A stretch of DNA of 64,000 bases, from assembly GCA_000165425.1 (NCBI GenBank), contig CT868085.1, positions 434,001 to 498,000 of the forward strand, given 5' to 3'. This document shows positions 8,418 through 15,308 of this stretch, piece by piece. Source of the DNA: Paramecium tetraurelia (lineage: Eukaryota). Numbering within the stretch: position 1 is the stretch's first letter; the number at the start of each line of letters is the position of its first letter. Position numbers and translations under genes: made by a program. The notes under the pieces were generated by a model. The model made no database searches. It worked only from the letters and a program-made list of their open reading frames with translations, and was not told the DNA's origin.

Positions 8418-10531
8418 TCATTAGTTGAGCATTTAACCACCGAATTGAGGCAAATTTTAGGAAATGCCAGTTGATATAGGTTATTGGATAACTGTTTGTT
8501 GCACCTCTGTAGGAATAACATGATGTTTAATAACCACTCCTTTTCTAGCTTCGATGATTTTGCTTTCATATTTTGATTTTAACTCCTTTAAGTATCTCCT
8601 AAATTGTTCTTATTATTGGTTGTTGAAAGATCTACCATCTTCTACCATATATTCTAGTTCTTCGATATCAAATCTGAGTTTATCAGAGATTCTTCTCTCT
8701 TTAATAATTTCATTCTCCAATTTATTAGCTCTATCTTCCCAAATGCCAATGATTCTTTGCAATTCTCTGTTTTCAATATTCAACATTTCCAATTCTGCAT
8801 CATCCCTTACATATCTCTCAACAAATCTATCCACAGGAACTTCTACTATTTTTTCAACTGGCACTTCAACTATCTTCTCAACTGGAACTTCAACTATTTT
8901 TTCATATGGAACTTCTACAATTCTTTCATAAGGAACTTCCACTCTCCTTTCTACAGGCACTTCTACATATCTATCTACAGGCCTGTCTATATATCTGTCC
9001 ATATATCTATCTCTAGGCACCTCCACTATTCGTTCATAAGGCACTTCGACCACTCTTTCATAAGGATAAGGCACTTCATATGGCACAGGTACTTCTACAA
9101 CTCTGTCAACAGGAACTTCAACTATTCTCTCAACAGGCACTTCGACTCTCCTCTCTACTATTCTATCCACAGGCACTTCAATATAAACAGGAATTTCCTT
9201 TATGACCTCATAGGGCACTTCTTTGATGACTTCTTTAATCACCTCATATGGCACTTCCTTGATCACTTCTCTGACAACTTCATAAGGAACTTCTTTAATC
9301 ACTTCATAAGGAACATCTCTATAATAAGGGACCTCGTAAGGAACTTCAATTCTTTAAACTACAGGCACTTCAATAGTTTGCAATTTGGGAACTTCAATAT
9401 ACTAAGGAACTTGTTGATAAACATATTCAATTTTTGGAATTTCAATAATCTTTTCCACAATTTTAGGTTCTGATGGCACTTCTTTAATCACTTCCTTAAT
9501 GATTTCAACTGGTTTCACTTCTTACACTTGGTGAGGTTGGTTGACATGGACTGTTTTTATTACTTCTACAGGTTTCTCTACAATCTTTTCAACCACTCTT
9601 TCTTAAATCTCAATTTGCTTCTTCTTCTTCTTCTTTCTCAACCTCTCGACTTCATCCTCCAATTGCTTTACATACCCATTTTATCTTTCTAATTAGACTG
9701 TTAAGTCAAATACTCTTAAATTATTATAGCAAAATACTTTTTATCAGCCACCTTGAGTAGTGATTCTAATTCCCCTATTCTATCAAACATTTCTTGATTT
9801 TCTCTCTCCAACTACTGCTTTATTATTAAGGCTTCATCCCTTTATCTACCTACTTCATAAAGTTCCTTCTCAAGAGATTTAATCTTTTTACACATCTTCT
9901 TCAAGCACTTCTTGTTGTCTTCCAAATATAACTCTATCTCTGAGTTGCTTTATTATTTTGGCTATTATTCCATTTATTTTATGATTCTTTCCATCTCTTA
10001 AATTTCTCTTTTTATTGTATCTATTTCTGGATCTTACACATGCTATTACGGTCTTTATCTTTTTGGAGTTTCAGCTATTGTCGACACTATTACTTCTTCT
10101 TTGCTTTCTTTCAACTTCTTATTCTTTTTTTTCAACTTCTTTATCTCTTTTTCCAAATGTCTTTAATCACTCCCTCCCTAAACCACGTAAGCCTGAGGTG
10201 AGCACATTTGTTATTGTTAAAAACCAAATTATGGTTAACAGACAGATTAACACATTGGTTGACACATTGGCTAACATGGTTAGCAATAACTTGGAGCACA
10301 TGAATGTCCAGGACTTCTTGTTACTGTAGCCACGGATTCATTCAATTAATCTGACACCCTTGAAGATGTTAACTTTTATGCTTGATTATTAAAAGATGTT
10401 CTCAACTCTTGAATAGCTGACGTCACTTTGGTTAATTTACTTGACCCTGTACTAGTAGTATTTGTATTTACAGGCTATAAAATTTTATGGCCTTCATTGA
10501 ATCTCACAGATTTTGAAGACTAGTTATTCAT
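8418..10531 (-). CDS. Alveolin/articulin-like cortical cytoskeletal protein (VPV/EKIVEVP repeats) with coiled coils
   Basis: EVPYEVIKEV and EKIVEVPV repeats; code-6 frame from MNNQSSKSVRF to ...GGQMLNQ*; one tiny intron near 9715-9738. Confidence 0.85.
8820..9600 (-). repeat. Coding tandem repeats (EVPYEVIKEV / EKIVEVPV)
   Basis: Repeated ggcacttc/ggaacttc units at about 24-bp periodicity inside the alveolin-like CDS. Confidence 0.85.
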
Positions 10532-10791
10532 TATTTAAATTAATAACTGATAATGTATTAAAATATTTTATAAATAAAAATTATTTTTTTTTATCAAATC
10601 AATAGAAATATTTAAGATTTGTTTGTTAAAGGAGTGTCATCTCTATAGAGATATTTAAGAATTCATAAACTTTAGAAAAAAAATAATTTTCTTAGGATTT
10701 ATGCATTCAATTATAGATAATTAATTATAGAAATATTAATTTATGTGTATTTATAATTTTTGATACTTATGATATAATAATCACAATCCTC

Positions 10792-13074
10792 TCATTGCTT
10801 CTTTTCCTCTTCGAAGGTTGGGAAATCAGTGTATCCCTTTTCATCTCCTCCAAAATAAGTCTTGAAGTCAAAATTAGTATTGAGTTAGAAACCATTTCTT
10901 ACTCTGTATACTAGATCTGGATTGTTTATATATAATTGTCCAAAGGAAACTGCATCGTACAAGCCATCTTTGATATCCTGATTAGCTCTTTCAGGAGTAA
11001 TAGAATGGTTTGCAAACAATATTCCTTTGTAATGTGGTCTCAATGATTTGTAAAGGTTTTGAATCTGCTTATCAGAAGCTGGATAGCCATGTCCATCAGC
11101 ATTTTCTTAGCTCTTGTCTTCGACCAAAGTGACATAAGCCAAATTGAGTTTGGATAATTGTTGTAACAGATAGGTGTACAGTTGAATTGGATTGCTATCA
11201 TTCATGTCTCCCGTGTGACCAATAGGTGTTAGTTTGATACTAACTCTTCCTGGGAAGATGGTGTTCAACTTTTGTATAAGTTGAATTACAAATTTGCATC
11301 TATTTTCAACACTTCCTCCCCATTGATCTGTTCTTTTATTAGCACTATCTCTAAGGAATTGATCAGGAAGATGTCCATTACCACCATTGATTTCTACTCC
11401 ATCGAATCCAGCAGTCTTAGCTCTTTTAGCAGCATCTACAAATTCTTGTAATGTAAATTGAATTTCAGCTTCAGTCATCTCGTGTGGTTTTTCAAATGGT
11501 TTGTTTTAAGCACTATAGCAATTTCCTCTGATTGCAATGGCAGATGGTGCCCATGGTTCTAATCCATTCTACAATGAGGAATGAGTTTTTCTTCCTCCAT
11601 GAAATAGTTGCAAGAACAATCTACCTCCCTTATCATGTACAGCTTTTGTTACTAAAGCCCAGCCTTTAGCTTGATCATCATTATAAATGCAAGGTGATCC
11701 TGGATATGACATGGATCTTTGACTTACTGGAGTGGCTTCACAAACAATTAGCCCAGCTGTTGCTCTCTAAGCATAATATTTAACATTTAATTCAGTTGGA
11801 ATGTATGGAGCAGGAGTTCTGACTCTATCCATTGGAGACATGGTGATTCTATTTGGTAAAAACAAGTCATTGATCTTCAATGGGTTCATCAGTTCAGTTA
11901 GGATATTAGATGGCACTTGATATTTAGGGTAGTCAGTGTATCCCTTTTAATCTCCATAGAAAGCAGTTCCCCAATCAATACTTCTGTTTAATTAATAGCC
12001 ATTTCTAGCTCTATCAACAAGATCTGGGTTGGATATGAAAAGTTGACCAAAGGCAACAAAGTCGAATTTACCTGTTCTGATTCCTTCATCAGCTTCCTCT
12101 AAGGTGATTCCTCCATTAGCCACTATAGCTCCAGTGAAATAGTTTCTGAATGCTGAATAGACACAAGGTATTTGTTTCTTTGATGCTGGATATCCGAAGT
12201 CTTAGAAGTTTTCTGGATCACTTTCATTCTTTAGTACAACATAGGCAATTTTGAGATTGCTCAAAGCTCTCAACAAAGTTTAATATAACTCCAAAGGATT
12301 TGAATCATTCATATCACCATGATGTGTAACTGGAGTTAGTTTGACTCCAACTCTACCAGCTCCAAAGACATCAACTAATTATTAAACAACTTCTAATAAG
12401 AATTTGCATCTATTTTAAGCACTTCCTCCATAAGAATCAGTTCTTTTATTAGCACTATCTCTCAAGAATTAATCTGGTAAATGTCCATGTCCTGCATTCA
12501 ACTCTACTCCATCAAATCCAGCTTTCCTTGCTCTTTCAGCTGCCTCTTTGTATTACTTCACCACTAAATTAATATCTTAAATTGTCATTTCTTAAGGAAC
12601 TTCGAAGTCCTTCTTAACAATTTGATTCTAGCCTCTAATTCTGACGGCTGATGGTGCCAAAGGAGTTTAGCCATTTTATAAGCTAGAATGAGTCTATCTA
12701 CCACAATGAAGTAATTGGATGAAGATATTTCCCTTTACGGAATGTACCTTGTCTACAACCTTTTTCCATCCTTCAGTATGTGCATCATTGAATATTCCTG
12801 GTGCTCCACCATAAGCCAATGAACGATCACTTATTGAGGCTGATTCTGTTACTGTAAATCCACCAGCTGCTCTTTGGGCATAGTATTCGGCATGGTGATT
12901 TGTAGGGACTAAGTCTTGACCACATCTGCCTCTTGTCATGGCAGATAGAGTAATTCTGTTCTTGCACTCCAATCCAGGGGACACCACTGTTGTAGAAAAG
13001 CAGCCTGTTCTTTCGATCAGACCTAATTTGTAAGGTTAGAATAAGGCCTAATAAGGTGTATTTGATTTCTCCAT
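10792..13074 (-). CDS. Tandem two-domain Old Yellow Enzyme (NADH:flavin oxidoreductase/OPR family), 760 aa, intronless
   Basis: One TGA-free frame of 2283 nt; two complete OYE barrels (NRI..MTR/MDR, YYAQRA, QLxHxGR, AGFDGVE, NKRTDxxGGS, NPDLV, GYTDxP) joined by KYQVPSNILTE. Confidence 0.93.
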
Positions 13075-13208
13075 TTTTTCTTAATTAATTGATTACTTTC
13101 ATTTCCAAATTCCTAAAATACCCAAAAATACTGCGTACTATTTTTAGAAAAATTTAAAAAAATTTCACAAACATGATTTAAATTTATTATTATAAATAAT
13201 TATTTATA

Positions 13209-14429
13209 TCAATTTAAAAAGAATTTGTGATCCAAGGCTTAAGAACAACTTATTCTTTTATGAGGATCAATTTCTAGCATCTTGACTAATAAATCTCTAA
13301 GCAAAGGGTCAAGTATCATTTCCCTTAGACTCTGCTGTTTCTTCACCTTTAGTACACTTTCCTTTGTAGTTGTTCCCTATGGCCATATATAGTACTTTCC
13401 ATTAGTGGCATTTTTGACGTTGAAACAATGTTTTAAGCACCCCTTCACATTACTTGCCATCCAATGAGGAAAACTCTATTCAGTTACCTTCTCAACCAAA
13501 GCCATATGTTCGAATTCATTCTTCCTTGTTTAAAATAGTAAATGTCCTAGCATATAAAATTTATTGGTACCTGTGTACATTTCAAAGATGATGCAAGCTA
13601 TTCCCCACACGTCACTTTTCTAATCCCATCTACAACACTACAACTGAACCTCAGGAGCTCTATATTGACGTGTATTAATTATACAATTATGGTCTTCATC
13701 ATCGAATTCAGCTCCACCAAGGTCGATAATCTTGATCCTGTGATCTGCTGGGAGATACCTAAATGAGAATTTAAATATTATCATACAAGTCATTCTGTTT
13801 CTACAACTGACGAATTCTACTAAATAGAATGTTCTCTGGTTTTAGATCTGTGTGAGTCAATTTTATTTCATGTAAGTGCCCAATGCTTTTAATTAATTAT
13901 CTGCTGATGCTTCTAATCAAATGCATAGGAATCCCACGATTTTGATTCAGTCTTAGCATATCATTTAAACTTGGTCCAAGCTAAAAATCAATATAATTTA
14001 AACAATACTCTCTCAAACACCATACAATAATATCCTCTATGATAGAAGCTTTCAATTATTTCAACAAAATATCTATTTAAATCTTTCTTTTTCAAATAAA
14101 ATAGTATGTCTGCTTCTTACTACGCACTTTCAGCATGATTGCTTCTCACTATCTTCATGGCATAGGGATTTAGAAATTTCCTTCTTCTCACTTTCAAAAA
14201 CTCTTCCAAAAGTCCCATCGGAAATATGTCTTCTTATTTTATAATCCTTGATGTGTTCACCCTTTCGATATCTATAATGTTTGTAGTCATCACTAGAAGA
14301 ACTTCCATTTGATCCTTCATCAGTGACATTCGATGTACTTGTAGAACTACGATTCGATATGTATTTATACTATTTAGCTTTTCTATACGATCTTCGATTT
14401 GATCTTCTATGAGATTCTTTTGAGGACAT
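13209..14429 (-). CDS. LAMMER/CLK-family dual-specificity kinase; apparent +1 frameshift just after the Gly-rich loop
   Basis: DGTFGRV, YAMKIVR, HTDLKPENIL, IIDLGGA, TRQYRAPEV, EHMALVE; three tiny introns; frame changes near 14190-14200. Confidence 0.85.
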
Positions 14430-14458
14430 TGGTTTCTACTTAATATCTTAATTATTAA

Positions 14459-15308
14459 ATGTCATATTAATTTGGGATCAATCAATTATAGAGCACAACA
14501 GTTCCAAATGCAAAGTACAAAACCATCCTTTGTCGACATTATCAAGGTATTCTAATTCTAATTATCAAAAATAGCAACTAAATAATGTGCCATCGGTTCG
14601 AAATGTTAATTCGCTCATGGAATTGAAGAATAAAGACAAATGAATGGTAATGGATAAAACTATAATTCAAAGATCCCCTGCCTGCTTCAGCACTTTCATC
14701 GATAGCTACTGCGCCTCAAACCACAAACATTGAATAACAATAAAAAAATTAATAACCTTTGTTTAAAAGTAAGAATAATCAAATAAATAAGTACCTTGCA
14801 AGTACCATCAACTCAATTTTTGTAAGAATGGTTCAGGATGCCAATATGTCCATGGTATGTATATATTATTCTTAATCATATAGATTCTGACTCATAAACA
14901 CAATCAACACCATAGCAATAATAATAACAATAACAATAATAACAACAACAATCATAACAATAACAATAACAAATCTAATTATCATAACAATAGTAATAAT
15001 AGTAATTCTCATAATAATAACAACAATAACAACAACCAGTCGATGCGATGTCCGTAACCTTGTCGCATATCTTGATGGAAATGTAACAAATCTTCAATCA
15101 GGAAGTAGGTTAATTTAATTTTACATAGGATTTACTTTAAAAGGTAAGATTTGCCATTGAATAAGTGAGATAAGGAAATTTAACATTAGCGTGTGACTAG
15201 ATCAGATCCATTATTAACTCATCAGAGAGGACTGCAGATGAAATTCAATCATATACATTGTTATATAATTAATCAGTAGCATATTACAAATAACTATTAT
15301 AACAATGA
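14459..15308 (+). CDS. CCCH zinc-finger protein with poly-Gln tract
   Basis: KYKTILCRHYQATKQCAIGSKCQFAHG and PCKYHQLNFCKNGSGCQYVH after removing tiny introns. Confidence 0.85.
14911..15036 (+). repeat. Poly-Gln coding repeat made of mixed TAA/CAA/TAG codons
   Basis: (TAA/CAA/TAG)n run in frame with the CCCH gene. Confidence 0.8.

Follow-up and report, generated by a model that had tools for sequence, protein, structure and literature searches.

A single gene and mRNA for two OYE barrels

In a 64,000-nucleotide (nt) window of the Paramecium tetraurelia genome (assembly GCA_000165425.1, contig CT868085.1, positions 434,001 to 498,000), we analyzed a gene whose single reading frame holds two Old Yellow Enzyme (OYE) domains. 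Read under the ciliate nuclear code (NCBI table 6), its coding sequence lies on the minus strand at 10792..13074 and comprises 760 codons followed by TGA (10794-10792). Within this frame, 22 TAA/TAG codons specify glutamine, and no in-frame TGA precedes the terminal one. A Pfam scan of the whole protein with PF00724 (Oxidored_FMN) gave 453.7 bits in two stretches. When the halves were scanned alone, barrel 1 (residues 36-362; 11989..12969, minus strand) scored 231.5 bits over profile positions 12-341 of 342, and barrel 2 (residues 395-732; 10879..11892, minus strand) scored 225.7 bits over positions 2-342, both above the cut-off of 27 bits. The two barrels are identical at 184 of 353 residues (52%; E 8e-136) and are joined by the 11-residue linker KYQVPSNILTE (residues 384-394; 11893..11925, minus strand). 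The first-pass annotation, made from the letters alone, had described a single frame with two full OYE domains, this linker at about 11890-11925, and two fragments of the open reading frame (ORF) track (12694-12987 and 11107-11478) in the same frame. Its observation proved correct in every particular that we checked, including the fragments, which are table-11 ORFs whose offsets (13074-12987 and 13074-11478) are multiples of three.

The Pfam match begins at residue 36, leaving an N-terminal segment of 35 residues in barrel 1 (12970..13074, minus strand). This segment contains a lineage-specific insertion, LIERTGCFSTTVVSPG (residues 19-34; 12973-13020, minus strand), which is identical in all six orthologs and was modelled as additional beta strands, with a predicted local distance difference test (pLDDT) value of 58 in block 21-30. 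A tblastn search of the window returned a single match, the gene itself, and hence no further OYE copy. OYE relatives of the 2,4-dienoyl-CoA reductase/enoate reductase type combine the OYE barrel with Fe-S and FAD/NAD domains. The Paramecium polypeptide is likewise longer than a single barrel, but PF00724 is the only family that passes the Pfam threshold and what has been added is a further OYE barrel, so that this multi-domain type was rejected. A ComA match on the protein (16.4 bits) fell under its cut-off of 25.2 and was discarded.

We mapped RNA on 10400-13400 using two raw oligo-dT stranded RNA-seq runs (X21 and X22) and two small contig sets (X3 and X8). Contigs and raw reads agree on a single, intron-free, polyadenylated mRNA at about 10736..13094 on the minus strand. 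A 2379-nt transcript contig (X3 record 2) spans 10736-13094 and includes both barrels; the 20 loose T residues ahead of 10736 represent poly(A) on the minus strand. Another contig (X8 record 4) covers 10740-13052. Raw depth was unbroken from bin 10703-10803 through bin 13026-13126, reaching 624 and 557 (X21) and 116 and 123 (X22) in the linker bins. The flanks were silent: depth was 0 in all four runs in bin 10602-10702, and 0.09 and 0 in the raw runs in bin 13127-13227. First mates lay on the plus strand, as expected for minus-strand RNA in usual stranded libraries. No joints were reported in any of the four runs over the mapped interval, indicating that the gene has no introns and ruling out an in-frame intron at the linker. 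In the same runs, depth over the OYE gene was in the hundreds, versus about 3-15 for the neighboring genes. Transcripts starting or ending within 11880-11940 had been named beforehand as the mark of two genes; in this interval the four runs showed no pile-up of read starts or ends and neither joints nor poly(A) tails, and depth was even across the linker, which supports one gene with one transcript.

Public protein databases already contain this sequence, labelled with a generic family name. Its 90%-identity cluster contains 760-residue proteins from P. pentaurelia, P. octaurelia and P. sonneborni (two copies), together with an 881-residue model from P. primaurelia. The fused frame is unbroken and the linker free of insertions or deletions in all six sequences, that is, the window and five orthologs from four other species of the P. 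aurelia complex. Since the frame is transcribed as one mRNA and conserved as a 760-residue protein in other Paramecium species, it is not a chance frame. In the 10 pairs of 760-residue sequences, the linker (compared over residues 386-396) has a constant length and is 45-91% identical, while identity between species is 87.4-94.5% for barrel 1 and 94.2-98.9% for barrel 2, suggesting that both barrels are constrained, and barrel 2 more so than barrel 1. Met396, at the start of barrel 2, occurs in the window sequence only and is replaced by Ile or Leu in the five others, indicating that barrel 2 lacks a conserved initiation codon. In the P. primaurelia model (P0122), 121 extra N-terminal residues are of low complexity and rich in Gln, and the common start MEKTNTPYQ lies inside the model; the extension looks like read-through of upstream low-complexity sequence and is probably an over-extended gene model.

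Fold and active sites of the barrels

Both barrels match classical (class I) OYEs end to end, with 266-293 bits. They have in common with these enzymes (NerA, 4jic/5n6g; GsOYE, 6s0g/7bo0; CtOYE, 6s32; NostocER1, 6uff; PETN reductase; NemA; morphinone reductase; OPR3) the TIM-barrel fold and the Q-L-x-H-x-G-R and G-Y-T-D-Y/F-P motifs. The best solved relative of barrel 1 is the GTN reductase NerA (5n6g/4jic; 266 bits), and that of barrel 2 is GsOYE (7bo0/6s0g; 293 bits), with CtOYE (6s32) also among them. Whereas class I OYEs are single barrels of about 350-400 residues, the 760 residues of the Paramecium protein make up two. For each barrel, the 60 top-ranking PDB chains were 355-410 residues long, the Foldseek targets listed did not exceed 381 residues, and no solved chain with two OYE barrels was present among the matches listed from the PDB sequence and Foldseek searches. 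Typical OPRs have one domain according to PMC2688005. In YqjM-type (thermophilic-like) OYEs, a Cys replaces the Thr that contacts the flavin, as stated in bioRxiv 10.1101/2023.07.10.548207. The Paramecium barrels have Thr or Asp instead of Cys at this site, and the 60 best PDB chains per barrel were of classical type by molecule name; membership in the YqjM type was therefore rejected.

AlphaFold2 modelled the full-length protein (43-sequence alignment) with a mean pLDDT of 90.8 and a predicted template modelling (pTM) score of 0.62. In a Foldseek search against the PDB, each barrel of the predicted model superposed as a (beta/alpha)8 barrel on solved single-barrel OYEs, one barrel per match, with template modelling scores of 0.88-0.96 on the target and about 0.45 on the query, root-mean-square deviations of 1.3-3.8 Å and 35-42% identity. 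A prediction of barrel 1 and barrel 2 as a complex scored 0.18/0.17 against a mark of 0.34; it was run without controls, and we counted it neither way.

A loop common to both barrels, at residues 281-300 in barrel 1 and 651-670 in barrel 2 (about 12175-12234 and 11065-11124, minus strand), carries the motif G-Y-P-A-S-K/D-K-Q-I and aligns weakly and with gaps to NerA and GsOYE. It has the lowest confidence within each modelled barrel (pLDDT 72-73 and 64-67).

To describe the active sites, we used a hidden Markov model (HMM) alignment of 235 single-barrel relatives plus 120 further relatives of barrel 2, 355 sequences in all, and functional labels (substrate-binding pair, proton donor, flavin contacts) that we take to carry over from the OYE1/PETNR literature. 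The classical motif is H-x-x-N/H-G-Y: of the 235 relatives, 223 have His at the first triad position, 197 Asn at the second and 209 Tyr at the third, and of the 120 further relatives, 113 have the His/Asn/Tyr triad, 115 the first His and 116 the Tyr. By contrast, barrel 1 reads N193-A-G-H196-G-H198 (12481..12498, minus strand), aligned to H-A-A-N-G-Y of NerA ('veihaangyl' in 5n6g), and barrel 2 reads N563-G-G-N566-G-H568 (11371..11388, minus strand), aligned to H-S-A-N-G-Y of GsOYE ('eihsangyl' in 7bo0). The classical pair H-x-x-H/N is thus replaced by Asn193/His196, in inverted order, in barrel 1 and by Asn563/Asn566 in barrel 2, and the classical Tyr proton donor by His198 and His568. A first-position Asn paired with a donor-position His is absent from all 355 single-barrel relatives. 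A Gln/Asn/His triad was found in 4 of the 120 single-barrel relatives of barrel 2 (among P0395-P0514), which indicates that other family members, too, can have a donor-position His.

The flavin side differs between the barrels. At the FMN-contacting Thr of P-x-T-R, barrel 1 has Thr47, whereas barrel 2 has Asp416 (11827..11829, minus strand; 'spmdrvr' against 'apltrnr' in 7bo0), a residue found in this column in 0 of the 355 relatives. The flavin-side Gln of Q-L-x-H (Gln120 and Gln489) and the Arg of H-x-G-R are kept in both barrels. In the order flavin-contacting residue, substrate-binding pair and donor, the site states are therefore T,N,H,H in barrel 1 and D,N,N,H in barrel 2. The five orthologs compared have the same states, except that P. 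octaurelia (P0124) reads G-H-G-T-L in barrel 1, with Thr at the position of His198 of the window; the other four have His. The non-canonical catalytic residues of both barrels, which hint at unusual chemistry, are a new observation, absent from the first-pass annotation.

Origin of the pair and multi-barrel OYEs in other lineages

For phylogenetic analysis, multi-barrel proteins were split with an HMM built from 120 single-barrel matches. In a 77-row tree, five barrel-1 sequences (SH-aLRT 100) are sister to five barrel-2 sequences (100) with a support of 98, and in a focused 42-row tree the two barrels are sisters at 100/98. The nearest standalone relatives are single-barrel Paramecium paralogs (P0187 of P. 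octaurelia and P0212 of P. sonneborni, 371 residues each; P0395 of P. pentaurelia, 369 residues), which are 45-49% identical. They form a clade with both barrels in the 42-row tree (96/95), as the outgroup. Because the barrels are sisters and are nested beside these paralogs, we infer a lineage-specific duplication and fusion. The distance between barrel 1 and barrel 2 is about 1.2 substitutions per site, and among the best 120 of 7667 matches no standalone protein was more than 48% identical to barrel 2, versus 52% for barrel 1. The old internal duplication put forward in the first-pass annotation agrees with the per-barrel trees, in which the barrels are each other's closest relatives; it occurred in tandem, in the ciliate lineage, and is much older than the aurelia radiation.

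The paralogs share with the fused protein a Lys at the Arg position of the R-L-S motif. Unlike the fused protein, P0187 and P0212 have a His/His/Tyr triad and the Arg of F-G-Arg, and P0395 has His/Thr/Tyr and a Lys at the latter position. Since the single-barrel paralogs keep His and Tyr, the site changes common to both barrels most simply predate the duplication. A likely order of events would begin with a ciliate OYE paralog that altered its catalytic residues (first His to Asn, donor Tyr to His, and phosphate-side Arg to Gln). This paralog would then have been duplicated in tandem and fused in frame, and barrel 2 would later have exchanged its FMN-contacting Thr for Asp and its second His for Asn, these specific changes, judging from the tree, probably following the duplication.

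The first-pass annotation had presumed that multi-domain OYEs do not add a second barrel. This premise does not hold, as proteins with two or three PF00724 matches are predicted in marine Gammaproteobacteria, fungi and trypanosomatids. A length-matched search retrieved proteins of 752-753 residues with two full PF00724 matches (P0005-P0008), a 748-residue protein of Dipodascopsis tothii and partial forms; three-match proteins of 1161-1277 residues came from Panaeolus, Tetrapyrgos and Leishmania orientalis. Such forms appear to be rare, because in a search of 1.84 billion representatives, which gave 11,618 proteins at E 1e-10, just 5 of the best 150 had at least 700 residues and several matched stretches. 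We found no description of a two-barrel OYE in the open-access literature, nor any paper on old yellow enzyme and Paramecium; among the papers listed on tandem or fused forms, only surveys of plant OPR families were pertinent. The annotation had also considered that double-barrel OYEs might turn out to be common and characterised. They do exist, but the architecture is rare rather than unique, and it is undescribed in the open-access text that we searched. Surveys tend to pass over long OYE sequences; a large screen of the family excluded those longer than 555 residues as multi-domain (bioRxiv 10.1101/2023.07.10.548207).

The 752-residue family is gammaproteobacterial (Shewanella, Vibrio, Ferrimonas, Neiella, Aliagarivorans and Psychromonas) and, like the Paramecium protein, consists of two diverged tandem barrels. 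Both barrels lie in one ORF in 4 of 79 loci (Ferrimonas aestuarii, Neiella litorisoli, Shewanella ulleungensis and S. metallivivens). These fused ORFs encode 731-753 residues (L002, L003, L004 and L030). Proteins of the family align with 98% of the length of the Paramecium protein at 36-38% identity. More often the barrels are encoded by adjacent genes: of 15 loci with a two-barrel-long match, 4 are fused and 11 have two adjacent ORFs, which are separated by 8-49 nt or seemingly overlap (start positions provisional) and share a frame in L001 and L011. Pairs are found, for example, at 3001-5202 of L001 and 2956-5196 of L004, within the set L001-L053. The gammaproteobacterial barrels are sisters of each other (99 in the 77-row tree, 99/95 in the 42-row tree) and of independent origin, and their sites are canonical (His/Asn/Tyr and His/His/Tyr), unlike those of Paramecium. 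A model of the bacterial fused form (L004 ORF, 9-sequence alignment) had a mean pLDDT of 71.5 and a pTM of 0.58, too poor to judge a barrel-barrel interface. As for genes adjoining the bacterial pair, an ADH_N protein follows it in L018 and a short-chain dehydrogenase precedes it in L002.

In fungi (Dipodascopsis tothii, 748 residues; Panaeolus cyanescens, 1161; Tetrapyrgos nigripes, 1276) and trypanosomatids (Leishmania orientalis, 1277; L. tarentolae, 689), the multi-barrel proteins are gene models, seen as predicted proteins only, with two or three PF00724 matches each. They appear to have arisen independently (77-row tree) and have, in contrast to Paramecium, mostly canonical catalytic residues. 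In the 77-row tree, the barrels of each lineage pair with one another (Gammaproteobacteria 99, Dipodascopsis 100, Tetrapyrgos 100, Panaeolus 99, P0256 98), and those of trypanosomatids form a clade of their own (100). This pattern suggests repeated independent fusions, although concerted evolution between barrels may have produced it instead.

Possible function of the paired barrels

Taken together, we consider it probable (roughly 0.8) that this nuclear gene produces one abundant, intron-free mRNA for a 760-residue polypeptide of two tandem classical-type OYE TIM barrels, with the history of duplication and fusion proposed above. By family membership, the protein is probably a cytosolic, abundant flavin oxidoreductase with two sites. 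Each barrel would bind FMN and take hydride from NAD(P)H, following the ping-pong scheme of the family. The Asn/His or Asn/Asn pair would hold the electron-withdrawing group of an electrophilic substrate, to which the hydride would be passed, with His or solvent in place of Tyr as the proton source. The two sites might be tuned differently, especially through Asp416, and the fusion would fix the barrels at 1:1 within one molecule.

Several points weigh against this interpretation. The single polypeptide is deduced from the mRNA, and the linker may be cleaved after translation. With a pTM of only 0.62, the barrels are modelled confidently and their mutual placement is not. Beyond the catalytic motif, some cofactor contacts depart from the majority form: the Arg of R-L-S is Lys in both barrels (Lys in 37 of the 235 background rows), and the F-G-Arg/Lys position is Gln in both (Gln in 11 of 235). 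Asp416 may impair the flavin rather than retune it, in which case barrel 2 would perhaps be no normal catalyst. The Thr of P. octaurelia at the barrel 1 donor position may reflect relaxed constraint or a sequencing difference, and the donor residue may not be essential. The order of substitutions was read off the tree, not taken from ancestral reconstruction. Finally, RNA fragment ends pile up at 13071/13072 (181/387 and 73/328 in X21; 34/72 and 17/66 in X22), at or just inside the ATG (13072-13074), with one contig reaching 13094. These ends may come from read trimming in the run of A residues that precedes the ATG, or from a very short or absent 5′ untranslated region in some transcripts.

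A division of labor, in which one barrel is a working flavoenzyme and the other a pseudo-enzyme serving as a structural, regulatory or substrate-binding partner, is a serious alternative, if a less likely one. Either barrel could be the degenerate one. In barrel 2, Asp occupies the Thr site, as in none of the 355 relatives, and the Asn/Asn substrate-binding pair lacks His; barrel 1 evolves faster (87-94.5% identity versus 94-99%) and has the variable donor residue, Thr in P. octaurelia. However, both keep the FMN-side Gln and Arg and were confidently modelled as full-length barrels. Moreover, barrel 2 is the more altered and yet the more conserved of the two, unlike a decaying domain, which argues against simple decay.

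Alternatively, the barrels could form an obligate intramolecular pseudo-heterodimer, packing through a defined interface and acting in concert, either in successive reductions or with one gating the other. The constant length of the linker, without insertions or deletions in six Paramecium sequences, would fit such an arrangement. So would a Rosetta-stone argument from bacteria, where a diverged OYE pair is adjacent in 11 and fused in 4 of the 15 long-match loci, and the separate rise of fusions in several lineages. We nevertheless find this doubtful: the full-length pTM gives no confident interface, adjacency and fusion may reflect co-expression only, and the bacterial pairs, being of independent origin, say nothing direct about Paramecium. 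More speculative is a general form of the idea, in which paired, diverged OYE barrels would be a recurrent and overlooked functional unit, an obligate hetero-pair encoded by neighboring genes in many marine Gammaproteobacteria and fused separately in some of these, in Paramecium and perhaps in fungi and trypanosomatids, and the two differently retuned flavin sites of the Paramecium protein would cooperate in one molecule. One barrel might then oxidize NAD(P)H while the other reduces the substrate, or the two might perform successive steps. If true, the much-studied OYE family would have a mode of action that has so far gone undescribed.

That the locus holds two separate genes, or a tandem pair merged by an annotation or assembly artefact, is highly improbable: tandem OYE genes are common, some bacterial pairs are parted by a stop codon and a few bases in the same frame (L001, L011) and in the window an ATG (Met396) stands at the entrance to barrel 2, but the frame contains no internal TGA, RNA coverage is unbroken, a single 2379-nt contig spans the gene, no pile-up of read starts or ends and no poly(A) falls in 11880-11940, the fused frame recurs in five other sequences from four other species, and Met396 is not conserved.

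Few flavoenzymes have been studied as much as OYEs, which serve as workhorses in biocatalysis, yet the debate over their physiological roles continues. The P. tetraurelia gene provides an RNA-verified, evolutionarily conserved natural OYE-OYE tandem with a combination of sites absent from 355 sampled relatives. It raises the questions of what a site with His for Tyr and Asn for His does, and how an Asp adjacent to the flavin affects redox behavior. Standing beside the bacterial pattern of split or fused pairs, it offers a system for asking whether OYE paralogs act in pairs; if the barrels are merely tethered independent enzymes, it is a modest architectural curiosity.

Glutamine codon usage differed along the mRNA (10795-13074, minus strand): 17 of 23 Gln residues in barrel 1 are encoded by TAA/TAG, versus 5 of 22 in barrel 2 (Fisher p = 0.00094). 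The G+C content at third codon positions was alike in both barrels (0.270 vs 0.264) despite this contrast. Upstream of the gene, a protein kinase that matches PF00069 in its C-terminal part lies at 13209-14465 on the minus strand, apparently in several short-intron pieces. The downstream neighbor, at 9638-10531 on the same strand, is an ORF rich in Gln and Lys with no Pfam match. Raw RNA depth over both neighboring genes was at most about 15.

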